Positions 10,060 through 56,030 are shown, counted from the first letter of the stretch. The stretch: 64,000 bases of DNA from an uncultured Bacillota bacterium (GCA_942493145.1 OW818679.1:1623552-1687551); one strand, 5' to 3'. Notes: generated from the sequence alone by a model not told the origin. Program-made: numbers and translations.

Positions 10060-10449
10060 GTCCTTTCACTCCATCCAATTTTTTGCATTACATCCCAACA
10101 ATACAAGGAAAATAGTCTTCTAAAGTCAGTATCCCCGGCTAGCTTCTGAGCCAACAAAAATAATCATATACACTCTTATCAAACCTCGTGTAATAGTTAA
10201 TTATAGGTTATAAAGGGAATTTTATCAATGAAATATTTCTTAACAGCACGCAAAAATATTTTTGCCGCGCAGTTTGAGCAACAGTTAGCATATAAGGATC
10301 AAGAAATAGAGTTTCTAAAAAGAATTGTATCTTTAGGCCGGGAGGATTAGGTTTTTTCACACTGCAAACTTTTTGTATTTATGCAGCGTCTATATTGTGT
10401 AAACATATTGGCAGTTCATACACGGACAGAGAGGTGGGACTGAATACAA

Positions 10450-10965
10450 ATGGGCAGAGGCAATTTGGCAACTGTTTTTGAAGACTATGTTATTAAGCAC
10501 AAAGAGAATCACTACCGGCTTGCTTTTAGTTATGTAAAAAATGCTGATGATGCTTTGGACATTGTCCAGGAATCCATATATAAAGCTATTACAACGCTGA
10601 ATACGCTAAAAAGTCCGGAATATTTAAATACCTGGTTTAAAAGAATTCTGGTGAATACTGCATTGGATTTACTTCGAAAGCAAAAGAAGCTTATTGTGGT
10701 AGAAGATGAAACCTTATCCGGTTTTGATTCAGGTACAACAGATAATTATGAGGATGTAGATTTACATAAAGCGATGGACGATTTACCGGTTCAATACCGA
10801 AGCATAATTGTGTTAAGGTACTTTGAGGATCTGAAGATTGAAGAGATTGCAGATATTTTACATGAAAACGTAAATTCGATAAAAACACGTTTATATAAAT
10901 CACTTAAAATGTTACGGATTCAAATGGATAACGATAGGGTAAGGAGGGCGGCCTATAATGGATGA
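10450..10965 (+). CDS. sigV: ECF-type sigma-70 family RNA polymerase sigma factor (SigV-like)
   Basis: 171 aa with region 2 (DALDIVQESIYKA) and region 4 (LRYFEDLKIEEIADILHENVNSIKTRLYKSLKML). It overlaps the downstream anti-sigma gene by 8 nt. Confidence 0.75.
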   Translation: MGRGNLATVFEDYVIKHKENHYRLAFSYVKNADDALDIVQESIYKAITTLNTLKSPEYLNTWFKRILVNTALDLLRKQKKLIVVEDETLSGFDSGTTDNYEDVDLHKAMDDLPVQYRSIIVLRYFEDLKIEEIADILHENVNSIKTRLYKSLKMLRIQMDNDRVRRAAYNG

Positions 10966-11866
10966 TAAATTATTGAAATTGAAAGATGAATATATGAACA
11001 TACCTATTCCTGCAGAGTTGGACTTTATTGTCAGAAAGGCTTTGAAAGATGGCAGAGAAAACAATCTGAAAGACTTTAAAAGAAATCATGGATTAAAAAG
11101 GTTAAGAATCGCAGCCGCATCAGTGGCAGCCGCATTTATCATACTTACGGCAGGGGTCAACAGCAGCCCGGCGTTTGCGGCAGCGTTGTCGGAAGTACCC
11201 ATAATCGGCAGTCTTGTAAAGGTGCTCACTTTTAGAGAATACACGGTAGATGAAGATAAATACAATATGAATATCAAAGTACCTGCTATTGGTGGTTTGG
11301 AAAACAAAGAATTGGAAAGCAGTTTAAATGAAAAATACCTGGAAGAAAACAAAAAGCTGTATGAGGAATTCATGGCGGATATGGAGGATTTGAAAAAAAA
11401 TGGCGGAGGTAATCTGGGGATGGACAGTGGATACATTGTTGCAACCGATACCGACAGAATACTCTCTATCGGGCGCTATGTCGTAAACACGGTGGGGTCT
11501 TCGTCAACAGTATTCAAATACGACACTGTAGACAAGGTCAATGAAATTCTGATTACGTTGCCGAGTTTATATAAAGACGAGCGGTACATTGACATTATCA
11601 GCGAAAATATCAAGAAGCAGATGATTGAACAGAATAAAGCCGATAAGAGTAAGTTTTATTGGGTTTCCGGCATTGAGCAGAATACGACCATAACGTTATT
11701 TGAAAAAATTTCGAAGGAACAAAGCTTCTATATCAATGCAGAGGGCAAACTGGTCATATCCTTTGATAAATACGAAGTTGCTCCAGGGTATATGGGCATT
11801 GTGCAATTTGTAATACCAACAGATGTCATATCAGATATTTTAGATAGCAACGAATATATAAAATAG
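10958..11866 (+). CDS. rsiV: Anti-sigma factor, RsiV-like (single TM helix with an extracellular domain interpreted as DUF4163/DUF3298-type)
   Basis: The N-terminus KDEYMNIPIPAELDFIVRKAL resembles B. subtilis RsiV. A TM helix (AAASVAAAFIILTAGV) follows. The gene is translationally coupled to the ECF sigma gene. Confidence 0.65.
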   Translation: MDDKLLKLKDEYMNIPIPAELDFIVRKALKDGRENNLKDFKRNHGLKRLRIAAASVAAAFIILTAGVNSSPAFAAALSEVPIIGSLVKVLTFREYTVDEDKYNMNIKVPAIGGLENKELESSLNEKYLEENKKLYEEFMADMEDLKKNGGGNLGMDSGYIVATDTDRILSIGRYVVNTVGSSSTVFKYDTVDKVNEILITLPSLYKDERYIDIISENIKKQMIEQNKADKSKFYWVSGIEQNTTITLFEKISKEQSFYINAEGKLVISFDKYEVAPGYMGIVQFVIPTDVISDILDSNEYIK

Positions 11867-43256: not shown

Positions 43257-43288
43257 GAAGGTGGAAAGAAAATCTTCTTTCCACCTTC
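43257..43288 (+). terminator. Hairpin after the SBP gene
   Basis: gaaggtggaaagaa / aatc / ttctttccaccttc forms a perfect 14-bp stem. The tail is weak. Confidence 0.55.
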
Positions 43289-43322: not shown

Positions 43323-43351
43323 TTGACCAGTATTCATAATGACTTTATAAT
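43323..43351 (+). promoter_or_regulatory. Sigma-A promoter of GntR paralog 1
   Basis: TTGACC, a 17-nt spacer, then TATAAT. Confidence 0.55.
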
Positions 43352-43445
43352 AAATTTATAAGATTACAAATTTAACTTGAATGAAATATATAATCCGTTT
43401 TTAGCTGGATTATATATTTTATTTTTAAGGAAGGATGGGAACGTT

Positions 43446-44168
43446 ATTACTACTGGTGCTCCATTGTATTACAAAGTATATAATGCATTAAGAAACAAAA
43501 TTGAGGCGGGAGAATTCTCAAAAGGCGATTTATTGCCTACTGAACTCGAATTGGAAAATTTATTCAAAGTGAGTAGGATAACGATACGAAAAGCTATTGA
43601 AATGCTCTCTAACGAAGGTTTTGTTGCAACAAGACAGGGTAAGGGTACAGAGGTACTTGATCCAAAAACTACGCAGAAATTGAATAGTGTTACCTCCTTT
43701 TCTGAGACCCTGTTGGAAAAAGGTTATAATGTTTCATCAAAGAATGTACAGATTGAACTTATAAAACCTCCTGGCCGCGTGGCTTCAGAACTCAAAATCG
43801 ACCTTGACACTGAAGTTGTTAGAGTTTACAGAATCAGGCTGGCTAATGATAAGCCGATAGCAATTATGATTAATTATTTACGGGCAGAAATGGTCCCGGG
43901 AATAGAAAGTAAGATTAATATGGCTGATTCTCTTTATCGCTTTTTGGAGACTGAGTATAATATTGTATTTGACAGTGCTGTTGAGAATATAGGTGCCAGA
44001 GCGGCAGGTACTACAGAGGCTGAAATGCTTCAAATACCCGAAGGGGCACCTTTGATTACAAGCAGGAGGGTCACTTCCGCTGATGGTAAACCCATTGAAG
44101 TTGTTGTCTCAAGTATAGTAGCAGATAAATATGAGTACAAGGTTTTTCTAAAAGGCAGACCGGCATAA
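43446..44168 (+). CDS. GntR/HutC-family transcriptional regulator (winged HTH + UTRA), paralog 1
   Basis: PLYYKVYNALRNKIEAGEF...LPTELELENLFKVSRITIRKAIEMLSNEGFVATRQGKGTEV followed by a UTRA domain. The proposed ATT start at 43446 lies behind SD aaggaagga. The track TTG at 43377 has no RBS and would translate through the SD. Confidence 0.75.
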   Translation: MTTGAPLYYKVYNALRNKIEAGEFSKGDLLPTELELENLFKVSRITIRKAIEMLSNEGFVATRQGKGTEVLDPKTTQKLNSVTSFSETLLEKGYNVSSKNVQIELIKPPGRVASELKIDLDTEVVRVYRIRLANDKPIAIMINYLRAEMVPGIESKINMADSLYRFLETEYNIVFDSAVENIGARAAGTTEAEMLQIPEGAPLITSRRVTSADGKPIEVVVSSIVADKYEYKVFLKGRPA

Positions 44169-44206
44169 TTAAAACAAATTAGAAATTGAATACTGGAAAA
44201 ATTAGC

Positions 44207-44252
44207 TTGAATAAAAAACATTATGATGTTATAATGAATTATGACATCATAA
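44207..44252 (+). promoter_or_regulatory. Sigma-A promoter of GntR paralog 2 bracketed by a 9-bp inverted repeat (operator candidate)
   Basis: TTGAAT, a 17-nt spacer, then TATAAT. The inverted repeat is ttatgatgt (44221..44229) / acatcataa (44244..44252) with the -10 box in the 14-nt spacer. Confidence 0.55.
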
Positions 44253-44302
44253 TGTTTTTTTGCTTAATTAGCAACTAAATCTAATGGAGAGGATGGAGTG
44301 CT

Positions 44303-45025
44303 ATTTCTACAAGTGCACCGCTGTATCATAAGGTATATAGCTCTTTAAGAAACAAAATAGAAGTTGGAGAATATATAAAAGGCGATTTTCTTCCGACCGA
44401 GCAAGAATTACAAAATCAATTTAACGTAAGCAGAATAACAATTAGAAAAGCAGTAGAAATTCTGTCAAATGAAGGTTTTGTAGCTACAAGACAGGGTAAG
44501 GGCACCGAAGTTCTTGATCCAAAGACAACGCAGAAATTAAATTATGTCACTTCATTTACAGAAACTTTATCGGAAAAAGGTTATAATGTTTCATCGGAAA
44601 ACGTGCAGGTAGATTTTATTAAGCCACCCAGCCGTGTGGCTTCTGAACTCAAAATTGATCAAAATACTTATGTAGTAAGGATATACAGAATAAGACTGGC
44701 TAATGACATACCTATTGCGATTATGATCAATTATTTATCGGCGGAAATAGTTCCGGGGATTGAAAAGAAAATCAAATTGATTGGTTCTCTTTACCGCTTT
44801 TTAGAGTCGGAATATAATATCGTAATCGATTGCGCAGTTGAAAATATCGGAGCCAGATCTGCGGGTGTCACTGAAGTGGAAATGCTTCAGGTATCTGAGG
44901 GTACACCACTTCTCACCAGTAGACGCATTACCTTCAGTAACGGTAAACCTATAGAAGTTGTAATATCCAGTATTGTCGCTGATAGATACGAGTATAACGT
45001 GTTCCTGAATGGAAGGCCGGGTTAG
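44303..45025 (+). CDS. GntR/HutC-family transcriptional regulator, paralog 2 (full length, missed by the ORF track)
   Basis: The frame is open from the stop at 44282..44284 to 45025 and is colinear with paralog 1 over 240 codons. The only ATG/GTG/TTG codon is at 44603. A conserved ATT at 44303 lies behind SD ggagagga. Confidence 0.65.
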   Translation: MSTSAPLYHKVYSSLRNKIEVGEYIKGDFLPTEQELQNQFNVSRITIRKAVEILSNEGFVATRQGKGTEVLDPKTTQKLNYVTSFTETLSEKGYNVSSENVQVDFIKPPSRVASELKIDQNTYVVRIYRIRLANDIPIAIMINYLSAEIVPGIEKKIKLIGSLYRFLESEYNIVIDCAVENIGARSAGVTEVEMLQVSEGTPLLTSRRITFSNGKPIEVVISSIVADRYEYNVFLNGRPG

Positions 45026-45105: not shown

Positions 45106-45834
45106 ATGATAAAAAAAGAAGATTGGGGTTTTACTAATCCTGTTGTTTCTGATTTGTACGGCAGGCCTCCCCTGGTATGGAAAGATATGGATGTACATCT
45201 GGTCGTTTACGAAACGGATATTGAGAACATTGAAAAGGTGGTACCGGAGCCTTTGAAGGTAAGAACCAATAAAGTTATCGTATGGCATTCCCAGTTTACA
45301 CTTGGAACAACGCAGGGGTCTTTTAAGGAAACTGCAATCTATGTGCAGGTTGAACATAACGGCATCGAGGGTGATTACGAACCGTTTTTATACGTAAACA
45401 ACCATTTGCCGCTGACTGCAGGACGTGAAATTTGGGGATATCAGAAAAAGATGGCGAGCATTGAAATCGTTCCCGAGATGGAAGCGGTAAGAGCTCAGAC
45501 TGACCGTTTAGGGCATGAGATAGTCAAAGCCCTTGTAGTACCCAGGTATGAAGCGGAAATGAGTGAAGTACCCTGGAGTAGTGAGGGGGTTTATTCATTA
45601 AAGTATATTCCAAGCGCGGAAGAAGGCGGAGAGCCTGTAAGAGAGCTTGTGCTCACCGCTGGCAAGTTTACTGCCCAGGAAGGAAAATTCTTCGGTGGTC
45701 CTGCTTCTGTCAAATTTGAAAGGTCCGAAATAGACCCTACATATATACTGGAACCCAAAAAGATCCTTGGCGGCTTCTATGGAAAAGGTGACCTTTATCT
45801 GCCTTTTGGCAAGATCGTACACAATTATAAATAA
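45106..45834 (+). CDS. Acetoacetate decarboxylase (ADC) family protein
   Basis: 242 aa. VVPEPL and GREIWGYQKK align with C. acetobutylicum Adc VVPEPL / GRELSAYPKK, the block that contains the Schiff-base Lys. RBS aggaggg is present. Confidence 0.75.
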   Translation: MIKKEDWGFTNPVVSDLYGRPPLVWKDMDVHLVVYETDIENIEKVVPEPLKVRTNKVIVWHSQFTLGTTQGSFKETAIYVQVEHNGIEGDYEPFLYVNNHLPLTAGREIWGYQKKMASIEIVPEMEAVRAQTDRLGHEIVKALVVPRYEAEMSEVPWSSEGVYSLKYIPSAEEGGEPVRELVLTAGKFTAQEGKFFGGPASVKFERSEIDPTYILEPKKILGGFYGKGDLYLPFGKIVHNYK

Positions 45835-45855
45835 ATTATACATAAGGTGGATATT

Positions 45856-47382
45856 ATGAATGTATTTATCATTGCGTTTGATTTAGGTACAGGGGGGAGT
45901 AAGGCATCCATCTATGATGTGGATGGGAACTGTTTATTCAGCCATTTCGAGTCATACAGCACATTTTTTCCTAATCAGGGATGGCATGAACAGAAGCCTG
46001 AGGACTGGTGGAAAGCTATAGTTGATGGAACCAGGTCGCTGATAGAAAAATCCGGAATTAAAAAAAATGAAATCAGGTATCTGGCTATTTCTGGTCATAG
46101 CATGGCGGTGGTTCCGGTCGATGAAAGCGGAACACTTCTAAAGAATACAGTGCCAATATGGTCGGATACAAGAGCAGTAAAACAATCTGACGAATTTTTT
46201 ACGCGGATAGATTATTCCGATTGGTATACTACGACTGGGAATGGTTTTTCAAAGGAATGCTATGCTGTTTTCAAAATGATGTGGTATAGGGAAAACGAGC
46301 CGGACCTTTATCGTAAAACGTATAAAATCCTTGGGACCAAGGACTATATCAATCTAAAATTGACGGGGAATTTCCTGACTGACAATTCCTACGCTTCTGG
46401 ATCAGGCGTCTACGATTTAAAAAAACGAGAATACAAAAAGGAATATATTGAAGCCAGTCTGCTGTCAAAAGACATTTTCCCTGAAATCGTTTCTTCGCAT
46501 ACTCCTGTAGGAACAATTTTACCTGAAATAGCCAACATTATGAATTTACCTGAAGGCCTTGTTGTAATGTCAGGCGGAGTTGATAATTCCTGTATGGCTT
46601 TGGGCGCGGGGAATCTGAAAGCAGGAAGGGTATACCTTTCTCTGGGGTCCTCGGCATGGATCGCAGTATCGTCTGAAAATCCGGTTATCGATAGTACCAT
46701 AAAGCCGTTTGTATTTGACCATGTAGTGCCGGGGCTGTATACTTCCGCTACATCGATATTTTCTGCAGGAAGTTCATTACGTTGGGTGAATGAAACCATT
46801 TGTCCTGCTTTCAAGGAAATGGCGTTATCAAATGACAGGGACGTATATGACCTTCTCGTAGAGTCAGCGATGAAGTCTCCTGTCGGCTCGAATGGAATAA
46901 TATTTAATCCCAGCCTGGCCGGTGCGCCGGCGGCATATCCCGGCAGGAATGTCAGGGGTGCCTTCCTGGGATTGGAATTGAGGCACTCAATATCCGATGT
47001 GATACGTGCAGTTCTGGAAGGAATAACACTTGACCTTTGCCTCATGCACAGGAAACTTGAAGATATCTGTGATATTGACAAGAATATAGTAATTGTTGGT
47101 GGAGGAAGTAAAAATAAAGCCTGGATACAGATGTTTGCCGATGTATTCGACCGTACTTTTACAAGGATAAATATTGAGCAGGATGCTGCTTCATTAGGTG
47201 CGGCTGCAATTGCGGCTGTTGGGTCGGGAATATGGAAGGATTACAGTGTTATTGAAAAGGTTATCAAAAGGGTAGAAAGCATAGAACCTATCGATGAAAA
47301 TGCAAAAGAATATTCTAAATTGTCAGTCGCTTATTCAAATACTCTCAAATATTTATCGGAAATCGGCAATATCATGACTTAA
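45856..47382 (+). CDS. FGGY-family carbohydrate kinase
   Basis: The N-terminus IIAFDLGTGGSKASIYD and C-terminal IVIVGGGSKNKAWIQMFADVF are FGGY N and C signatures. ATG at 45856 with RBS aaggtgga. Confidence 0.85.
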   Translation: MNVFIIAFDLGTGGSKASIYDVDGNCLFSHFESYSTFFPNQGWHEQKPEDWWKAIVDGTRSLIEKSGIKKNEIRYLAISGHSMAVVPVDESGTLLKNTVPIWSDTRAVKQSDEFFTRIDYSDWYTTTGNGFSKECYAVFKMMWYRENEPDLYRKTYKILGTKDYINLKLTGNFLTDNSYASGSGVYDLKKREYKKEYIEASLLSKDIFPEIVSSHTPVGTILPEIANIMNLPEGLVVMSGGVDNSCMALGAGNLKAGRVYLSLGSSAWIAVSSENPVIDSTIKPFVFDHVVPGLYTSATSIFSAGSSLRWVNETICPAFKEMALSNDRDVYDLLVESAMKSPVGSNGIIFNPSLAGAPAAYPGRNVRGAFLGLELRHSISDVIRAVLEGITLDLCLMHRKLEDICDIDKNIVIVGGGSKNKAWIQMFADVFDRTFTRINIEQDAASLGAAAIAAVGSGIWKDYSVIEKVIKRVESIEPIDENAKEYSKLSVAYSNTLKYLSEIGNIMT

Positions 47383-47403
47383 TGTCAAGAGTGGAGTGTC
47401 GGT

Positions 47404-48351
47404 ATGAAAATAATAAAACGAACAATATTAGAATCCGTAAGTGATCGAAAAACGAAAAAGATCATGTCGGATGGTGCTTATGGCACATTGTTGATTACTC
47501 CCGCTATGATTGTTTTGTTCTTTTTCGGATTATTTCCGTTGTTCTATGCCATCAACCTATCCCTGAGACATGTGGATTTAACGGCAGGACCAGCTGCTCC
47601 TTGGGAATTTGTAGGTTTTGATAATTTCAGGTATGCTTTGAATAACGGTGTTTTTTTTGATGCATCCATGCGTACACTTCTTTTCGCAGTTATATCAGTC
47701 GGGATTCAAATGGTTCTAGGAATTTATCTTGCATTCCTGATCAACAAGTTGAAATGGTTTAAAGGCATAATAAGGGCACTTTTCCTTTTGCCTCTTGCCT
47801 CAGCACCCGCTGCAGTAGGAATGATCTGGCGTTATTTGTATGATTCGGATTTCGGGGTTTTCAATGCAGCACTCAAGGCTATCGGGATGCAGCCGCTCAA
47901 CTGGCTGGGTGATAGTAAAGTTGCTTTATTCAGTATTATCATATTTGATGTTTGGCAATGGACACCGTTTATTTTACTTATAACCCTGGCTGGCCTTCAA
48001 TCATTGCCGCGAGAGCCTTTTGAGGCGGCAGAACTGGATGCGGCTTCTAAATTCAGGGTTTTGACTCGATTGACTTTTCCCTTACTGTCGCCTGTGCTGA
48101 CATTGATTTTCATTTTACGTTCAATTGATGCAGCCCGATTATATGACCCTATCGCCACAACGACCCGCGGTGGGCCTGGCTCGGCAACGGAAACCGTCAC
48201 ATATCTGCTTTACAGGGTAGGTCTTAAACAATTCCGTTTGGATCAGGCAAGTGCGATGGCATTGCTTATACTATTTGCAATTATTTTGTTTTCAGGATTT
48301 GTGTTACGCCGTCTTATGAAGGAACAAGCTAATCGGGCCAGATCCAAATAA
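47404..48351 (+). CDS. ABC transporter permease (CUT1, MalF-like)
   Basis: Six TM helices and the EAA loop (EPFEAAELDAASKFRVLTRLTFPLL). Confidence 0.85.
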   Translation: MKIIKRTILESVSDRKTKKIMSDGAYGTLLITPAMIVLFFFGLFPLFYAINLSLRHVDLTAGPAAPWEFVGFDNFRYALNNGVFFDASMRTLLFAVISVGIQMVLGIYLAFLINKLKWFKGIIRALFLLPLASAPAAVGMIWRYLYDSDFGVFNAALKAIGMQPLNWLGDSKVALFSIIIFDVWQWTPFILLITLAGLQSLPREPFEAAELDAASKFRVLTRLTFPLLSPVLTLIFILRSIDAARLYDPIATTTRGGPGSATETVTYLLYRVGLKQFRLDQASAMALLILFAIILFSGFVLRRLMKEQANRARSK

Positions 48352-48374
48352 TCGAATACAAGGAAGGTGTTGAA

Positions 48375-49232
48375 ATGCGTCCTCAAAAAGTTTCACCCAT
48401 GGATATCCTGAGAATGTCTATTGTTATTGCTATACTGATAGTGGCGCTTTTTCCAATCTATTGGATGATTGGAACATCTGTGAAACCTACGGAGCTTATT
48501 CTTAGGAATCCCCCGGTATTTTTCTATCAACCTACGTTTGAACACTATTTATACGCGTTTAATCAGGCTGATTTTACGCACTACATATTAAATACACTTA
48601 TCGTTGCGCTTGGTTCAACAGCAATTGTAATTGTATGTGGTTCGTTGGCATCCTACGCTTTTGCCAGATACAACATCGGAGGAGGAAACCTGATGTTCTT
48701 CATCCTGACTACCCGCATGATGCCTGCTATTGCAGTTGTCCTTCCTTTCTTTATAATATTCCGCACAGCTGGCAATACTGCAGTCGGGCAATTTTTCCAA
48801 TTGGGACTAGACAAACTCGGTACATTGATAGTGTCGTACACTATTTTCAATCTCCCATTTGCAATATGGCTGATGCACTCCTTTTTCCAGGATATACCTA
48901 CAGAATTGGAGGATTCCGCCCGACTGGACGGATTTACCCGTTTCAAAGTGTTTTTAAAAGTGGTTTTGCCGTTGGCAGCTCCAGGTATCGCCGTAACCGC
49001 TATCTTTTGCCTGTTATTCTCATGGAATGAGTACTTATTTGCATCAGTTCTTACACGCGATGCTGCAAAAACGATAACAGTCGGGGTAGGAGATTTCTGG
49101 ACGCAGCGTGGTATATTATGGGGGCCGTTATCGGCTGCAGCTACGGTATGTGTCGTACCTATGATAGTATTCGCGATGATATTGCAAAAGTGGATAGTCA
49201 GAGGTTTGACTTTCGGTGCTGTAAAAGGCTGA
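48375..49232 (+). CDS. ABC transporter permease (CUT1, MalG-like)
   Basis: Six TM helices and the EAA loop (ELEDSARLDGFTRFKVFLKVVLPLAAPG). Confidence 0.85.
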   Translation: MRPQKVSPMDILRMSIVIAILIVALFPIYWMIGTSVKPTELILRNPPVFFYQPTFEHYLYAFNQADFTHYILNTLIVALGSTAIVIVCGSLASYAFARYNIGGGNLMFFILTTRMMPAIAVVLPFFIIFRTAGNTAVGQFFQLGLDKLGTLIVSYTIFNLPFAIWLMHSFFQDIPTELEDSARLDGFTRFKVFLKVVLPLAAPGIAVTAIFCLLFSWNEYLFASVLTRDAAKTITVGVGDFWTQRGILWGPLSAAATVCVVPMIVFAMILQKWIVRGLTFGAVKG

Positions 49233-49255
49233 TAATGGAAAAAGGAGGTATGGAA

Positions 49256-49516
49256 ATGTCGATAGCAGAGATTTGGGACCGTTTTTGGTGGTCGTTGATG
49301 TTGACAGTATTTCTTGGTTTGGTTTGGCTTAAGTTTGTAGATCCAATATTTCCAAACATCATTGTTGGGATTATTGTTTCGTGTGCGATAGGTACAGCTT
49401 ACTTTATACGCGGCATCCGAAAGATATTGAAGATTAAAAGGCATGAAAAGGAAATTGAACAAAAGGCATATGAAGAGCTTGTCGCCGAGTTCGGGAAAGA
49501 GGGGGCTGTTCGGTGA
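49256..49516 (+). CDS. Small two-TM membrane protein embedded in the ABC operon
   Basis: 86 aa from the ATG at 49256 (RBS aaaggagg 7 nt upstream). Two hydrophobic helices are followed by a charged tail. It has a 4-nt overlap with the next gene. Confidence 0.5.
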   Translation: MSIAEIWDRFWWSLMLTVFLGLVWLKFVDPIFPNIIVGIIVSCAIGTAYFIRGIRKILKIKRHEKEIEQKAYEELVAEFGKEGAVR

Positions 49517-50625
49517 TTGAACTTAAAGGAGTAACAAAAAGATTTGGAGCCAATTTGGCCGTTAGAAATCTTTCATTTAAAAGTCAGGCACGTGAATTCG
49601 TAGTACTGTTTGGTCCGGCTGGTGCCGGCAAGTCAAGTACGCTCAATATGATAGCGGGTATTTCCGAACCGACCTATGGCGAGTTGCTTTTTAATGATAG
49701 ATCACTCAAGGGAGTTCCTCCGGAACGTAGAAATTTTTCTATGGCTTTTGAGAATTACGCGCTGTACTCGCATTTGACTAACTTTGAAAATCTTGCATTC
49801 CCTTTAAGGGCACGTAAGATGCCGGAGGGAGAAATAAAGCGTCAGGTACAAAAAATGGCAGAACTGCTGCATATTGAAGGGATGCTTGACCGCAAGCCGG
49901 GGTTCCTGAGTGGAGGACAGCGCCAGCGTGTTGCCCTGGGACGCTGCCTGATCAGGCAGGCGGATATCTATTTGCTTGACGAACCCATATCTCACCTTGA
50001 TGCACGTCTGAGAATCCAAATGCGGGCAGAGTTGAAAAACATCTGTCTTGAAAAGGAAGCCACAGTGCTTCATGTTACACATGATTATCGTGAAGCGATG
50101 GCATTAGCTGATCGTGTTGTTGTTCTGAATAAAGGCAGACTGATGCAGGACGCTTCCCCTGAAGAAGTATACAACAATCCGGCTAACGATTTTGTTGCTC
50201 AATTTGTCGGAGATCCACCAATGAGCTTCATCAAAGTGCAGCTTACTTCAAAAAACGACAAACCTGCATTCTGTTTGGATGAATCAGAAATAACGATAGC
50301 TGCGGAAGATGATTTCAATGCTGAGACAGCTGCAATTGCCAATAGTGCTGAAGAACTCAAAATCGGACTGCGTGCCAACAGAACATCGTTGTCCGGTATT
50401 GAAGATGAGCAACACAATGTTTCCGCTGATGTATATCTTGTGGAATCCCAAGGGCACAGGAAACTGGTGACAGTAAAATTCGGGAAAAGTCTGGTACAGG
50501 TCATCACTGTTCCTGAACAGGATTGGAAAGTGGGAGAACGTGTCTGGATAAGCGTACATTCAAAGTTCCTTCACGTTTTCGCAGAGGGAAAGGCGATATA
50601 CCACCCTGACATTCATACATTGTGA
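49513..50625 (+). CDS. ABC transporter ATP-binding protein (MalK/UgpC-like) 1
   Basis: Walker A GPAGAGKSS, signature LSGGQRQRVALGR, Walker B YLLDEPISHLD, H-loop VTHD, and a C-terminal regulatory/TOBE-like domain. GTG start. Confidence 0.85.
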   Translation: MIELKGVTKRFGANLAVRNLSFKSQAREFVVLFGPAGAGKSSTLNMIAGISEPTYGELLFNDRSLKGVPPERRNFSMAFENYALYSHLTNFENLAFPLRARKMPEGEIKRQVQKMAELLHIEGMLDRKPGFLSGGQRQRVALGRCLIRQADIYLLDEPISHLDARLRIQMRAELKNICLEKEATVLHVTHDYREAMALADRVVVLNKGRLMQDASPEEVYNNPANDFVAQFVGDPPMSFIKVQLTSKNDKPAFCLDESEITIAAEDDFNAETAAIANSAEELKIGLRANRTSLSGIEDEQHNVSADVYLVESQGHRKLVTVKFGKSLVQVITVPEQDWKVGERVWISVHSKFLHVFAEGKAIYHPDIHTL

Positions 50626-50655
50626 GAATGACTCGCATAAAGGAGGAACGTAGCA

Positions 50656-51747
50656 GTGGCGTCAATAATATTGAAGGATGTTGAAAAAAAGTACGGTAAA
50701 GTTAACGCAGTACGCGGTATTTCAATGGATATAGCAGATGGCGAATTCATAGCATTTCTGGGACCATCAGGTTGCGGGAAGACATCGACAATGAGGATGA
50801 TCGCTGGGTTGGAGGAAATAACCCATGGCGATATTCTCTTCAATGGCTCGTCAGTAATAGACAAAAGACCATCCGAGCGCAATGTCTCGATGGCATTTGA
50901 AAACTATGCCCTGTATCCTACGCTGACAGTATACGAAAACCTTGCATTCCCTCTCAAGTCTGCAGGAAAAAAGGGCGATGACATGGATAAACGTGTACGC
51001 GAAATTGCAGATGTTGTAGGAATCACGGATTTATTGGAGCGAAAACCAAATAAATTGAGCAGTGGGCAATCTCAAGCCGTTGGATTGGCACGCGCATTGA
51101 TTCGCAAGCCGAATGTGCTGTTGCTGGATGAGCCGATTTCACATCTGGACACCAGCCAGAGATTTCATATGCGTATGTATATCAAAAGGCTTCATATAGA
51201 TTTGGGTTATACGATGATTTTAGTAACACATGACCAGGAAGATGCGATGTCCATGGCGGACAGGGTAGCAGTCATGAGTGAAGGAAAGCTGAACCAGATT
51301 GCATCGCCGCGTGAGATTTATGATAACCCTGCCGATATCTTTGTCGCCAGCTTTATTGGCGATCTTCCGATGAATTTCCTTGAAGGCAGGGTTGTGAGGG
51401 AAAATGACAGAACATTTTTTCAGAATAATACAGCTAAGCTTGAGTTGCCGGAGAAACTTTCCGGCCAGAACCTTCCTGAGGAAGTAGTACTTGGTATCCG
51501 TGCTTATCATTTAAAGGTGGTACCGGTAGGAAGTGAAGAGGGGACAATACCCGCTGAGGTTTTCATAACCGAGTCGCTTGGGGATATGAATGTAGTCACG
51601 GTGAAGATCGGGGATGTCAAGTTTCAGGTTGTTATGCCTGTAAATTATAAAGCCAGTCCGCGTACTCCCGTATCTCTTTCAGTCGACCGATCACGGGTGC
51701 ATCTCTTTGATAATGCTTCGGGCAAGGCCATTAAGGGTTTTCAATGA
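50656..51747 (+). CDS. ABC transporter ATP-binding protein (MalK/UgpC-like) 2, degenerate signature motif
   Basis: Walker A GPSGCGKTS, signature LSSGQSQAVGLAR, Walker B LLLDEPISHLD, H-loop VTHD. GTG start with RBS aaggagg. Confidence 0.85.
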   Translation: MASIILKDVEKKYGKVNAVRGISMDIADGEFIAFLGPSGCGKTSTMRMIAGLEEITHGDILFNGSSVIDKRPSERNVSMAFENYALYPTLTVYENLAFPLKSAGKKGDDMDKRVREIADVVGITDLLERKPNKLSSGQSQAVGLARALIRKPNVLLLDEPISHLDTSQRFHMRMYIKRLHIDLGYTMILVTHDQEDAMSMADRVAVMSEGKLNQIASPREIYDNPADIFVASFIGDLPMNFLEGRVVRENDRTFFQNNTAKLELPEKLSGQNLPEEVVLGIRAYHLKVVPVGSEEGTIPAEVFITESLGDMNVVTVKIGDVKFQVVMPVNYKASPRTPVSLSVDRSRVHLFDNASGKAIKGFQ

Positions 51748-51792
51748 TCAGAAAATACAGTAGGGAAAATCCACATGAATGGAGTGGCAATT

Positions 51793-52464
51793 ATGTTAAC
51801 ACCAATTGAAGTTGCAAGAATGATTGATATCAGCGCTGTGCAAACTCATCATACATATTCGGATATAAAAGAAATTGTTGACTATGCGAAACAATACAGA
51901 TTTATCAATGTACACGTTTTGCCATCCTGGGTCAAGACCCTGTCCACGATGCTCAAAGATGTGGAAGGCGTCTTTGTCGGTGCGCCTGTCGGTTTCCCGT
52001 CTGGCGCGCATAAAACGGAAACAAAGCTGCTTGAGGCAAGACAGCTGATTGAAGACGGTGTTGAGGAAATGGACATTGTCATGAATGTAGGCATTTTTAA
52101 AAACAAGGAATACGAATTTGTTTCGAAAGAATTAAAAGAAATTGTCTCGTTGGCCGGCAGCCAGATACGGACAAAGGTTATTATTGAAATCAACTGCCTG
52201 ACGGACTATGAAATGGCGAAAGCATGCGAGCTGGTTGTCGGAAGCGGAGCTGATTTTATTAAGACTGGTACGGGTTGGATACCCGGCAATGCCAATATAC
52301 CGAGAATCAGACAAATGAAGAAATTGGTCAAGGATAGCATAAAGATCAAGGCTGCCGGTGGAATAAGAAACAGGAATGAGTTTATGGAGCTTTATGAATT
52401 AGGCGTTGAACGGTTTGGAATAAACAACCGGTCTGCAATTGAGATTATCAAATCCTTTGAATAG
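51793..52464 (+). CDS. Deoxyribose-phosphate aldolase (DeoC) family class I aldolase
   Basis: 223 aa. It has a DeoC-like pattern (IDISAV..., VGFPSGAH, DFIKTGTG, IKAAGGIR). Confidence 0.7.
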   Translation: MLTPIEVARMIDISAVQTHHTYSDIKEIVDYAKQYRFINVHVLPSWVKTLSTMLKDVEGVFVGAPVGFPSGAHKTETKLLEARQLIEDGVEEMDIVMNVGIFKNKEYEFVSKELKEIVSLAGSQIRTKVIIEINCLTDYEMAKACELVVGSGADFIKTGTGWIPGNANIPRIRQMKKLVKDSIKIKAAGGIRNRNEFMELYELGVERFGINNRSAIEIIKSFE

Positions 52465-52503
52465 GAAGACGTATTCTTGATGTATATTGAAGGGGTGAGT
52501 CAA

Positions 52504-53442
52504 ATGTCTAAAAAAATCCTTATTACGCCAAAGTCTTTTAAGGCATATAAGAACAAGGCATATGCAATCATAGAGGAACAAGGGTATGAAATAATAGAAA
52601 ACTCTACAGGAAGAACCTTGTCAGAAAACGAGATTGTTGATTTTGCAAAACAGGATGTTGTCGGGATTATTGTCGGGATTGATCCATTGCCTGCTTCGGT
52701 GCTTGAAAAATGCAAAGACTTGAAGGCGGTATCAAAGTATGGTGTCGGGATGGACAATATAGACATGGATAAGGCGAGGGAACTGGGCATATCTGTAAAT
52801 AATGCCGTCGGTACAAATAATGTTTCGGTAGCGGAATTGGCAATCGGACTCATGTTCACATTGTCACGCCATATAGTTCAATGCGCTGGCGAGGTAAAAA
52901 ACGGGATTTGGGAGAGGGTCATGGGCTTTGAGCTTACCGGTAAAAAGCTTGGATTGATAGGAGGAGGACAGATCGGCAAGGAGGTTGCAAAAAGGGCCAG
53001 AGGTCTGGAAATGGAAGTGACGATCTATGACCCATATTTTAATGATGAGTCTTTCCTGAAAAAGTATGATGTCAAAAAGATTGATGACCTGAACAGCCTT
53101 CTTTCCGAATCGGATGTGATATCATTGCATGCGCCTGTTACACCGGATACAAGGGGAATTATCAATGAGGCTTCACTTGGAAGAATGAAATCAAATGCAA
53201 TATTGATCAATACGTCCAGAGGAGAACTCGTTGATGAAGAGGCTTTGTACAATGCCTTAATAAATAAACGTATCGCAGGGGCAGGCCAGGACGTTTTTTC
53301 TAAAGAACCGCCAGGTAAAGAAGAGAAGCTTCTCAAACTTGACAATTTCATTTTGACCTCGCACATCGGCGCGTTTACGCATGAAGCGGTTGAAAAAATG
53401 GTGATGGTTTCTACTTATAACATGTTGGAAATGCTTCGCTAG
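52504..53442 (+). CDS. D-isomer-specific 2-hydroxyacid dehydrogenase family protein
   Basis: NAD motif GLIGGGQIGKEVA. Catalytic region INTSRGELVDEEAL ... SHIGAFT. Confidence 0.8.
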   Translation: MSKKILITPKSFKAYKNKAYAIIEEQGYEIIENSTGRTLSENEIVDFAKQDVVGIIVGIDPLPASVLEKCKDLKAVSKYGVGMDNIDMDKARELGISVNNAVGTNNVSVAELAIGLMFTLSRHIVQCAGEVKNGIWERVMGFELTGKKLGLIGGGQIGKEVAKRARGLEMEVTIYDPYFNDESFLKKYDVKKIDDLNSLLSESDVISLHAPVTPDTRGIINEASLGRMKSNAILINTSRGELVDEEALYNALINKRIAGAGQDVFSKEPPGKEEKLLKLDNFILTSHIGAFTHEAVEKMVMVSTYNMLEMLR

Positions 53443-53457
53443 AAAGCAGGAGCTCTC

Positions 53458-54435
53458 ATGATTCCAGATAACGAGAATTTGATAATGACAGTCAAATACT
53501 GCATTCACAATATAGATCTGGGTTTTTGCCACAGCCACGAGCACCTTTTTATTGAGGAGGGACAGTCGTCAAAAATGGTACCGTCTTTGAAACTGGATGA
53601 CTTCGATAAAACGGTAAAAGAGTTGAGTTTATACAAAGATAATGGAGGAACAAGCATTGTTGACGCGCAACCTGTAGGCTGCGGACGCATGGCGGATTAT
53701 CTATACCGTGCTTCTGTCGTAACAAATGTCAACATCATAGCTTCAACCGGGTTTCATAAACTTGTGTTTTATCCCCAGAACCATTGGGTACATGCAATGA
53801 ACGACCAGCAGCTGACTGATATCTTCATCAGTGAAATTGGGGATGGCATGTTTATCGGATGCGATACCGAATACCCCAGTGTCAGAATTCCTGCGAAAGC
53901 AGGTGTAATAAAAACAGCTTCCGATGTAAAAGGAATAACTGATGAATACATAAAGCTCTTTTCTTCTGCAGCTGAAGCCAGTAATAATACAGGAGTACCG
54001 ATTATGAGCCATACGGAAATGGGGAAGGCAGCGCTGGAACAGATTGAGTTTTACAACAATAAGGGTGTCAATGCCGCTTCCATCATACTGTGCCATATTG
54101 ACAGGAATTTAAAGGATTACGCCTATCTGCTCGAAATTGCACAAACTGGTGTATATTTGGAACTTGATACCATAGGGAGATTCAAATACCATTCAGATGA
54201 GGATGAAGCCGGGTTTATATTGAAGCTTGTTGAACACGGTCATGAAAATCAAATTCTGTTGGGACTGGATACGACCAGTGAACGTATGAAAAATTACGGG
54301 GCTGATCTGGGGCTTGATTATATAAAAAATGTCTTTATACCTTTATTGAAATCGTATGGATTGAAGGAACAGACAATTGATAAATTCACAATTCACAATC
54401 CGGCAAAAGCATTCACAATAAAGAATAAAAAATGA
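53458..54435 (+). CDS. Phosphotriesterase-related (PTER/Php) amidohydrolase-fold protein, probable lactonase
   Basis: The metal-binding HxH motif (CHSHEHLF) is near the N-terminus. Length and later His/Asp positions (SHTEMG, CHIDRN, LGLDT) fit the PTE family. Confidence 0.7.
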   Translation: MIPDNENLIMTVKYCIHNIDLGFCHSHEHLFIEEGQSSKMVPSLKLDDFDKTVKELSLYKDNGGTSIVDAQPVGCGRMADYLYRASVVTNVNIIASTGFHKLVFYPQNHWVHAMNDQQLTDIFISEIGDGMFIGCDTEYPSVRIPAKAGVIKTASDVKGITDEYIKLFSSAAEASNNTGVPIMSHTEMGKAALEQIEFYNNKGVNAASIILCHIDRNLKDYAYLLEIAQTGVYLELDTIGRFKYHSDEDEAGFILKLVEHGHENQILLGLDTTSERMKNYGADLGLDYIKNVFIPLLKSYGLKEQTIDKFTIHNPAKAFTIKNKK

Positions 54436-54448
54436 AAGAGGAATCATT

Positions 54449-55399
54449 ATGATTTTACCACCAAAAGCAACTCAACCGACTATATATTTTATAGGGGTCA
54501 CAACTTCCAGGTCTTCAATTATGAATGTTTTCCCAATTTGGGCTGAAGCTCTTGGACTTAAGGATGCCGTCATCAAAGGCATCGATCTTGAGATTCATGC
54601 CGACCCCTGTAGTTACAGGGAAGTTGTAGAATTCATAAAGAATGATGAATTATCGATGGGTGCTTTAGTTACCACGCATAAAATTGACCTTTACAACGCA
54701 GCTAAAGACATGTTTGAGTATCTTGACCCTTATGCGCTAATGTTCGGAGAATTATCTTCGATTTCAAAAAAAGATGGGAAACTGGAAGGATGCGCAAAGG
54801 ATCCCATCTCCAGCGGATTGGCACTGAAAGCATTTGTTCCCGACAATTACTGGAAGGCTCACGGTGGTGACGTATTCATCATGGGCGCAGGCGGCAGCGC
54901 AATTGCGATGAGCGCATATCTTCTGAACAGAGATAAAGGCAATAATTTGCCTTCCAGGCTTATTGTCGGCAACCGGAGCAAACCCAGGCTGGAGGAAATC
55001 AAAAGGATTGTTTCCCAAATAAAGCCGGGTTATCCTGCAGAATTCCATCTCACTCCCGAAGCCAGGCAAAATGATGCAATTCTTAAAGAACTTAAGCCTT
55101 ATTCGCTTATTATCAATGCAACAGGTCTTGGCAAGGACAGACCCGGGTCTCCGTTGACGGATGTGTGTGAATTCCCGGAAAACAGTCTGGTATGGGAGAT
55201 TAATTACAGGGGTGACTTGTTGTTCATGCATCAGGCTATAAAACAGAAAGAAATAAAAAACCTTCATCTAGAAGATGGGTGGATTTACTTTGTCCATGGC
55301 TGGACTCAGGTTATTGCTGAAGTGTTCCATATCGACATCACGGGCAAGACCTTCGATAAATGCGAAAAAATTGCAAACGAGTTAAGAAAGAATGGCTAG
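54449..55399 (+). CDS. Shikimate/quinate dehydrogenase-like (AroE-fold) NAD(P) oxidoreductase
   Basis: LVTTHK corresponds to NVTxPxK, CAKDP to the catalytic Asp region, IMGAGGSAIA to the Rossmann motif, and INATGLG to NaTsxGM. Confidence 0.6.
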   Translation: MILPPKATQPTIYFIGVTTSRSSIMNVFPIWAEALGLKDAVIKGIDLEIHADPCSYREVVEFIKNDELSMGALVTTHKIDLYNAAKDMFEYLDPYALMFGELSSISKKDGKLEGCAKDPISSGLALKAFVPDNYWKAHGGDVFIMGAGGSAIAMSAYLLNRDKGNNLPSRLIVGNRSKPRLEEIKRIVSQIKPGYPAEFHLTPEARQNDAILKELKPYSLIINATGLGKDRPGSPLTDVCEFPENSLVWEINYRGDLLFMHQAIKQKEIKNLHLEDGWIYFVHGWTQVIAEVFHIDITGKTFDKCEKIANELRKNG

Positions 55400-55409
55400 G
55401 AGGGAAGAT

Positions 55410-56000
55410 ATGGCTTCAATAGAAAACGATTTCAACTGGGAAAAGGCATTTACCATTTATTTCGACAAAGTCAGCGGAATGAGCGATAAAAGCAAGCCTA
55501 CCCGTCGTATGCTCTCAAACATGAAGGGGATGTATTTTGATGAAACTGCATATGAGAAAGCACTTAAGGTTGGAGATGCGCTGATATATGAATTCTACGA
55601 ATTGGGAGCGCCTGAAGACCCGGGAGACCTCGCCTTCGGTACAAGTATCACCTATCCCGGAAAAGTGGGAAATGAATTTTACATGACCAAAGGCCATTTC
55701 CATACAATTCTTGATACTGCGGAAGTTTATTACTGCCTCAGTGGTAGGGGAATCATGCTGATGGAAGATATGGAAGGAGATTGGGCCGCCAGGGAATTGA
55801 CGCCCGGGAATGCAGTTTATGTACCGAAGGGGTATGCCCATAGGAGTATCAATGTAGGCAATGAACCCTTTGTGACTTTCTTTGTCTTCAGAGGTGATGC
55901 AGGTCATGATTATGGGACTATTGAAACTAAAGGCTATCGTAAGTTAATTGTCGAAAATAACGGCAAAGTAGAAATAATTGATAATCCTAAATGGAAATAG
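55410..56000 (+). CDS. Cupin-type sugar-phosphate isomerase (archaeal cPGI-like glucose-6-phosphate isomerase family)
   Basis: TKGHFHTILDTAEVYYCLSG ... YVPKGYAHRSINVG is a cupin metal motif resembling Pyrococcus cPGI. ATG at 55410 with RBS ggaggg. Confidence 0.65.
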   Translation: MASIENDFNWEKAFTIYFDKVSGMSDKSKPTRRMLSNMKGMYFDETAYEKALKVGDALIYEFYELGAPEDPGDLAFGTSITYPGKVGNEFYMTKGHFHTILDTAEVYYCLSGRGIMLMEDMEGDWAARELTPGNAVYVPKGYAHRSINVGNEPFVTFFVFRGDAGHDYGTIETKGYRKLIVENNGKVEIIDNPKWK

Positions 56001-56030
56001 CATGATAAAAAAAGAAGGTAGAATAAAAAA

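Follow-up and report, generated by a model that had tools for sequence, protein, structure and literature searches.

Predicted AUU start codons in a tandem pair of GntR/HutC-type repressor genes from an uncultured Bacillota bacterium

In Escherichia coli, infC and pcnB begin at AUU, which limits their translation, and initiation factor 3 (IF3) discriminates against this codon. They are the only confirmed AUU genes of that species, where near-cognate starts yield 1-2% of the output of AUG (bioRxiv 10.1101/063800). In Staphylococcus aureus, non-canonical starts with extended Shine-Dalgarno (SD) sequences have been described for cvfC1 (AUU), the repressor gene ccpN (AUA) and infC (AUA), and reporters of cvfC1, ccpN and citZ gave about 10% of AUG output from AUU or AUA (PMC13009471). 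Here we describe two tandem genes for GntR/HutC-type regulators, at 43446..44168 and 44303..45025 of a stretch of 64,000 nucleotides from an uncultured Bacillota bacterium (GCA_942493145.1 OW818679.1:1623552-1687551; hereafter the window, in whose coordinates positions are given), each with an ATT codon at the head of its proposed coding sequence. We consider it likely that both genes are intact and expressed, that they encode HutC-type GntR repressors acting on the adjacent sugar or sugar-acid operon, and that they are transcribed from promoters of their own and initiated at AUU.

The locus resembles the S. aureus set in its low-GC, Firmicute-type context, in that the gene concerned encodes a regulator, in the strong extended SD close to the start and in the conservation of the codon among relatives. 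The product of S. aureus ccpN is a helix-turn-helix transcriptional repressor of a carbon-metabolism regulon. Unlike the S. aureus genes, those described here belong to the GntR/HutC family, occur as two tandem paralogues and have starts read from sequence alone; nor is the codon fixed, close orthologues having ATT or ATC in some cases and ATG or TTG in others. A literature search pairing an ATT start codon with GntR returned no match.

In family and architecture, the nearest described relatives are NagR (YvoA) of Bacillus subtilis and DasR of Streptomyces, both of which have canonical starts. The window proteins share with them (PDB 2WV0 and 4U0V for NagR/YvoA, 4ZS8 for DasR) a GntR winged helix combined with a UTRA domain, and a palindromic operator-like sequence over their own promoter. 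Both align over their full length with the YvoA/NagR and DasR structures (for YvoA, E = 2.7e-30 over residues 4-232), and their residue 4 corresponds to residue 8 of the B. subtilis protein (PDB 2WV0). They differ from NagR/YvoA and DasR in sequence, identity by eye being no higher than about 30%, and in having an effector and a regulon other than those of the N-acetylglucosamine system.

Reading frames and start sites of the two genes

The two proposed genes and the SD sequences in front of them are as follows.

43446..44168, + strand: GntR/HutC paralogue 1 (copy 1), proposed coding sequence from ATT 43446 to TAA 44166-44168, 240 aa, (M)TTGAPLY...
44303..45025, + strand: GntR/HutC paralogue 2 (copy 2), proposed coding sequence from ATT 44303 to TAG 45023-45025, 240 aa, (M)STSAPLY...
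43428..43439, + strand: extended SD of copy 1, AGGAAGGATGGG, -10.8 kcal/mol, 6 nt before ATT 43446, with ATG 43435 inside it and out of frame
44286..44297, + strand: extended SD of copy 2, GGAGAGGATGGA, -10.7 kcal/mol, 5 nt before ATT 44303, with ATG 44293 inside it and out of frame

Counted from the ATT, each gene comprises 240 codons, and the two proteins are identical at 186 of 240 positions (78%) with 0 gaps; the original prediction, made from the DNA alone, had already described equally long, indel-free paralogues with about three quarters of their residues in common. Open reading frame (ORF) calling returns copy 1 as TTG 43377..44168 (263 aa) and, of copy 2, only GTG 44603..45025, the C-terminal 140 aa. 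An identical pair of calls stands in the public protein collection, as P0001 (263 aa) and P0059 (140 aa). The frame of copy 2 is open from TAA 44282-44284, with 6 codons between that stop and ATT 44303, and from the stop up to 44603 (codon 101) it holds no in-frame ATG, GTG or TTG, the very reason the original prediction had given for the gene being missed. With initiation at ATT, the mistaken start of copy 1 and the truncation of copy 2 by gene finders would both be consequences of the start codons.

Protein domains narrow down where translation can begin. The full 64-position profile of PF00392 (GntR winged helix-turn-helix) matches residues 7-70 of both copies (E = 7e-19 for copy 1, 4e-18 for copy 2), and PF07702 (UTRA, effector-binding) matches residues 92-230 (E = 7e-32 and 3e-31, respectively). 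The start of copy 2 is therefore bounded on both sides, by the stop 6 codons upstream of ATT 44303 and by the Pfam GntR domain that begins 6 codons 3' of it. Between the upstream stop and the GntR domain there is no usable canonical start in copy 2, and copy 1 has only TTG 43377, which lacks an SD. Profiles in NCBIfam likewise begin within a few residues of the ATT-encoded position, and no NCBIfam equivalog model reaches its cut-off for either protein, so that both are taken as generic HutC-type regulators. The recognition-helix regions of the two copies are almost identical and their UTRA domains are more diverged.

To score SD sequences, we calculated the pairing energy of the 16S rRNA 3' end (CACCUCCUUUC) with the 20 nt that precede each candidate codon. 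Pairing covers about 9 nt of each 12-nt segment, AGGAAGGAUGGG in copy 1 and GGAGAGGAUGGA in copy 2, with the energies and spacings listed above. The SD-like runs singled out in the original prediction, aaggaagga and ggagagga, lie 10 and 9 nt before their respective ATT codons, in agreement with the 9-10 nt it gave. Besides the two ATT codons, none of the in-frame candidate starts that were scored has a comparable SD. A scan of the entire window (64 kb), on both strands, sought a strong SD in front of ATT, ATC, ATA or CTG with an ORF of 150 codons or more behind it. Of the sites returned, 43446 and 44303 alone combine a nearby upstream stop with the absence of any canonical start within two codons; the other combinations of an SD with a near-cognate codon arise by chance inside genes or beside a real ATG.

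If the gene call of copy 2 were right, the 100 codons 5' of GTG 44603 would go untranslated. Nonsynonymous and synonymous differences per site (pN and pS) were counted by the Nei-Gojobori method; synonymous sites are saturated, and for this reason we give pN and pS, dN/dS being incalculable for most comparisons. Over the whole genes the two copies differ with pS = 0.78 (saturated) and pN = 0.12, which makes the duplication an old one. Despite this saturated synonymous divergence, copy 2 contains no stop or indel across its 240 codons. In the N-terminal 100 codons, 5' of GTG 44603, copy 2 differs from copy 1 with pN = 0.096 and pS = 0.76 (pN/pS ~0.13), the C-terminal part being looser at pN 0.136; compared with the L001 orthologue, the same 100 codons of copy 2 give dN/dS ~0.10. 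So low an N-terminal pN at saturated pS argues that the segment was translated throughout its history. Judged by this divergence, copy 2 is an intact full-length gene and not a pseudogene. A decayed duplicate, which the original prediction would have concluded from a canonical start present in orthologues and destroyed here, is contradicted by the undisrupted frame together with the constraint on the N-terminal codons.

Start codons across orthologues

For the closest relatives, at 57-77% identity, DNA was fetched and the start regions were read. ATT or ATC stands at the proposed start of seven genes from six sources, that is, the two window copies and five genes from five other assemblies. 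For these five we give the SD segment, its distance to the start codon, the pairing energy and the position of the codon relative to the window ATT.

L001: GGAAAGGAGTGG + 5 nt, ATC, -11.8 kcal/mol, same aligned codon
L002: AAAGGAGGG + 7 nt, ATT, -12.5 kcal/mol, same aligned codon
L118: AGAGGTGA + 5 nt, ATT, -10.1 kcal/mol, same aligned codon
L119: AAAGAGGGTGA + 5 nt, ATT, -9.5 kcal/mol, same aligned codon
L003: GAAAGGGGGTGA + 5 nt, ATT, -17.8 kcal/mol, two codons downstream

The proposal that the paralogues share a conserved ATT start thus extends to four orthologues that carry ATT or ATC in the aligned position, each preceded at matching distance by a strong SD. None of the aligned orthologues has a canonical start at another place that the window copies have lost. 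In the protein alignment, the isoleucine of both window copies and of P0002, P0005, P0007 and P0010 falls in the column of the initiator methionine of P0004 and P0011. Canonical codons occupy the same place in other relatives: L117 and L120 have ATG at exactly the ATT-aligned codon, with equivalent SD spacing, and L116, L036/L037 and L121 have an ATG or TTG start 1-2 codons 3' of it.

Gene callers begin L001, L002, L118 and L119 at upstream codons that have no SD (-5.0 kcal/mol or weaker). The calls P0002 (L001 2757, 250 aa) and P0007 (L002 222, 260 aa) carry SD-less extensions of 10 and 21 residues, and P0005 (L118 1316) and P0010 (L119 97) are called from a GTG that belongs to the SD itself.

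Distant homologues (<=52% identity, ~30 loci) all have canonical starts, almost all of them ATG. Three calls of 231-232 aa (P0043, P0051 and P0075) were considered as non-canonical starts and ruled out, as the caller had skipped an in-frame ATG or GTG a few codons upstream. Since these short calls are canonical after all, the ATT/ATC habit is confined to the close clade. A metagenome scan returned 80 loci, only two of which (L036 and L037) are close relatives, both with canonical starts; the remainder were too remote to be informative. In a neighbour-joining tree, drawn with no bootstrap, the ATT/ATC genes are scattered among canonical ones, and from parsimony on that tree we infer at least about four switches of start codon.

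The genes with ATT or ATC also have the stronger SD sequences, at a mean of -11.9 kcal/mol vs -9.1 kcal/mol for close canonical genes and -8.2 kcal/mol for distant canonical ones (one-sided Mann-Whitney p = 0.024 and 0.0008, respectively, kinship ignored). In the same loci, the neighbouring genes for an acetoacetate-decarboxylase-like (ADC-like) protein and an FGGY kinase have canonical calls of normal, constant length, which marks the ATT/ATC feature as one of the regulator rather than of the genomes.

Competing readings and a proposed mechanism

Several points weigh against initiation at ATT in these genes. Such initiation is predicted here from its sequence signature; the isoleucine codon ATT is common in AT-rich genomes, and the identity of the codon by itself therefore carries little weight. 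In copy 1, the in-frame TTG 43377 lies 3' of the predicted promoter and could serve as a start. The comparison of SD strength ignores phylogeny and draws on a small sample (n=7 ATT/ATC genes, 6 sources). Among the orthologues, L001, L003, L118 and L119 have an in-frame GTG within a GGAGGTG-type SD, and gene callers chose this codon in L118 and L119. If ribosomes can start there, at a spacing of 0-1, the comparative support would weaken. The window copies, unlike these four, have no GTG inside their SD.

It is unlikely that the existing gene calls are right, with copy 1 read from TTG 43377 as a 263-aa protein bearing a 23-residue N-terminal extension, and copy 2 either decaying or a stand-alone UTRA protein from GTG 44603. 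These are the only ORFs with canonical starts, they are the ones in the public collection, and TTG 43377 stands 3' of a predicted -10 box; yet neither start has an SD (-0.4 kcal/mol for TTG 43377 and -3.5 kcal/mol for GTG 44603). As the original prediction had observed, the TTG lacks a ribosome-binding site and would be read through the SD of copy 1. The 23-residue extension that results has no counterpart in copy 2, where the stop lies 6 codons upstream, or in any orthologue, and the 100 codons 5' of GTG 44603 are free of stops and indels at a pN/pS below that of the C-terminal part. A start slightly downstream, at the leucine of the PLY motif (CTG 44321 in copy 2, TTG 43464 in copy 1), would shorten the proteins by 6 residues and is, in our estimate, quite unlikely. 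Both codons are in frame, TTG is canonical and CTG a recognised near-cognate, and the Pfam GntR domain begins at that very leucine. Against this, neither has a well-placed SD: the strong one ends 23-24 nt earlier, and the energies are -5.1 kcal/mol for TTG 43464 and -1.6 kcal/mol for CTG 44321, the alternative start that the original prediction had proposed to check. The codon is TTA in L001 and L002, so it is not kept as a start, and the residues from the ATT to that leucine are conserved as protein (APLY).

The SD sequences themselves contain ATG codons, and translation could in principle begin at 43435 and 44293 and reach the regulator by a frameshift, or the short ORFs that they open (18 and 12 codons) could act as regulatory upstream ORFs. 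An AGGATGG core is common to both copies and the short ORFs overlap the ATT. However, the shifts needed differ (-1/+2 in copy 1 vs +1 in copy 2), no slippery site is present, the ATG directly adjoins the SD at a spacing of about 0, and L001, L002, L118 and L119 have no such ATG. ATGs 43435 in copy 1 and 44284 and 44293 in copy 2 are all out of frame, with an offset of 2 in copy 1 vs 1 in copy 2, just as had been described for those inside the SD, and the leaders of the two copies differ by a 1-nt indel. These differing offsets, together with the indel, speak against a frameshift device common to both copies, and we regard initiation at the embedded ATGs as very unlikely. The least credible explanation is that an original ATG became ATT by a sequencing or assembly error, or by a strain-specific mutation, and that the genes are non-functional here. 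A single G-to-T change would suffice for one gene, but the same change would be needed in two synonymously saturated paralogues as well as in five assemblies obtained independently from other samples.

Under initiation at AUU in both genes, which we favor, each copy would be transcribed from its own sigma-A-type promoter, and the extended SD would dock the 30S subunit so that AUU occupies the P site, with no canonical codon available there and no other near-cognate triplet within the P-site window. Reading of AUU by initiator tRNA would then be inefficient, as the anticodon pairs poorly with this codon and, by analogy, IF3 discriminates against it. By analogy with the tested cases, output per mRNA may amount to between a few percent and about 10% of that of an AUG gene. 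The result would be an autoregulated repressor kept at low copy number, its level possibly sensitive to IF3 and to ribosome status. We infer initiation at AUU, low output, IF3 dependence and a repressor role with an operator as a joint reading, in which low or regulated output from the weak start is suggested by the S. aureus and E. coli precedents. E. coli infC can regulate itself because the factor that discriminates against AUU, IF3, is what it encodes. For a GntR repressor this direct loop is lacking, and any dependence on IF3 would accordingly be an input and not feedback. The case adds an example to a known mechanism, in which a weak start keeps a regulator scarce, and is not a new mechanism.

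It is tempting to go further and to suppose that, in this HutC clade, selection has favored AUU or AUC with an extended SD as a tunable means of setting dosage, and that the combination did not arise by neutral chance, an idea that we regard as possible but doubtful. If true, repressor abundance, and hence the induction threshold of the sugar-acid pathway, would be tied to IF3, ribosome status or growth state, and repressor dosage would follow these inputs as reported for ccpN in S. aureus. Two paralogues with near-identical DNA-reading heads and diverged effector domains would then operate under one shared translational limit.

Practical consequences for annotation would follow from the AUU starts as such. 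Gene finders would be reducing a complete 240-aa regulator, copy 2, to a 140-aa fragment devoid of its DNA-binding domain, and copy 1 and several orthologues would carry false N-terminal extensions, the same start error recurring across databases. In a reconstruction of the local regulon, a repressor would be overlooked or wrongly described. Very few conserved AUU/AUC starts are on record, and the seven genes, from six sources, would be a comparative addition to them; they support the S. aureus observation that such starts accompany extended SDs, often on regulators. With their mixture of ATT, ATC, ATG and TTG, the close orthologues form a natural series on start-codon strength vs repressor dosage.

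Promoters, operator and the adjacent catabolic operon

Around the two genes, the following control elements are predicted.

43323..43351, + strand: promoter-like site of sigma-70 type, copy 1, TTGACC-17-TATAAT, 11/12 matches
44207..44235, + strand: promoter-like site, copy 2, TTGAAT-17-TGnTATAAT (extended TG)
44213..44260, no strand assigned: near-perfect palindrome, 22 predicted base pairs, overlapping the -10 box of copy 2 and followed by T7
43260..43287, + strand: terminator-like hairpin GGTGGAAAGA..TCTTTCCACC, GC-containing, 3' of a solute-binding-protein gene, read from sequence

The palindrome consists of two inverted boxes, ACATTATGATGT (44218-44229) and ACATCATAATGT (44244-44255), and its RNA fold has a predicted energy of -26.5 kcal/mol (z = -8.2). 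Most genes of this GntR clade and of its more distant relatives, Chloroflexi-labelled metagenome-assembled genomes among them, have a conserved palindrome, ACATnATnATGT, between their -35 and -10 boxes (L003, L004, L007, L038-L040, L116 and L118-L121); the two boxes of copy 2 are inverted copies of it. The palindrome at 44213..44260 is probably the autoregulatory operator of the repressor. On RNA reading through from copy 1, the same element would probably form a terminator-like hairpin. Upstream of copy 1, a degenerate operator-like sequence, TCATAATGA, lies in the spacer of the promoter-like site, and no better version occurs there. The hairpin at 43260..43287 was missed by a consensus scan because of its weak T-run; it is likely the terminator of the solute-binding-protein gene and would set copy 1 apart as a transcription unit of its own.

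An Rfam search found no family at gathering score anywhere in the window, and no known riboswitch or leader RNA in the window or the leaders; the leaders gave only chance matches of microRNA models to the palindrome. In L001, where the orthologue is single-copy, a leader of ~200 nt (at 2610-2760) separates the promoter-like site from the SD and contains four TCCGGAA(T) repeats; it is absent from the window.

Downstream of copy 2, the operon at 45106-56684 encodes the ADC-like protein, the FGGY kinase, two ABC permeases and two ATPases, together with a DeoC-type aldolase, a 2-hydroxyacid dehydrogenase, a PTE-family hydrolase, a cupin/GPI-like protein, a KDPG aldolase and one unassigned ORF. A 316-aa ORF within it (54449-55396) has no Pfam match at E <= 1e-5. 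A core of GntR, ADC-like and FGGY genes recurs in L001, L002, L116, L117 and L119. Its companions vary and are drawn from an ABC transporter, a cupin, a PTE-family lactonase, a 2-hydroxyacid dehydrogenase and aldolases of the DeoC and KDPG types. From its gene content, the pathway looks like an uncharacterised catabolism of a sugar acid or lactone.

Elsewhere in the window, a strong SD followed by ATA 10444 was considered as a further non-canonical start and ruled out, as the canonical ATG 10450 follows two codons later. The 171-aa protein that begins at this ATG, within 10444-10965, overlaps the start of a 302-aa ORF (10958-11866) by 8 bases.

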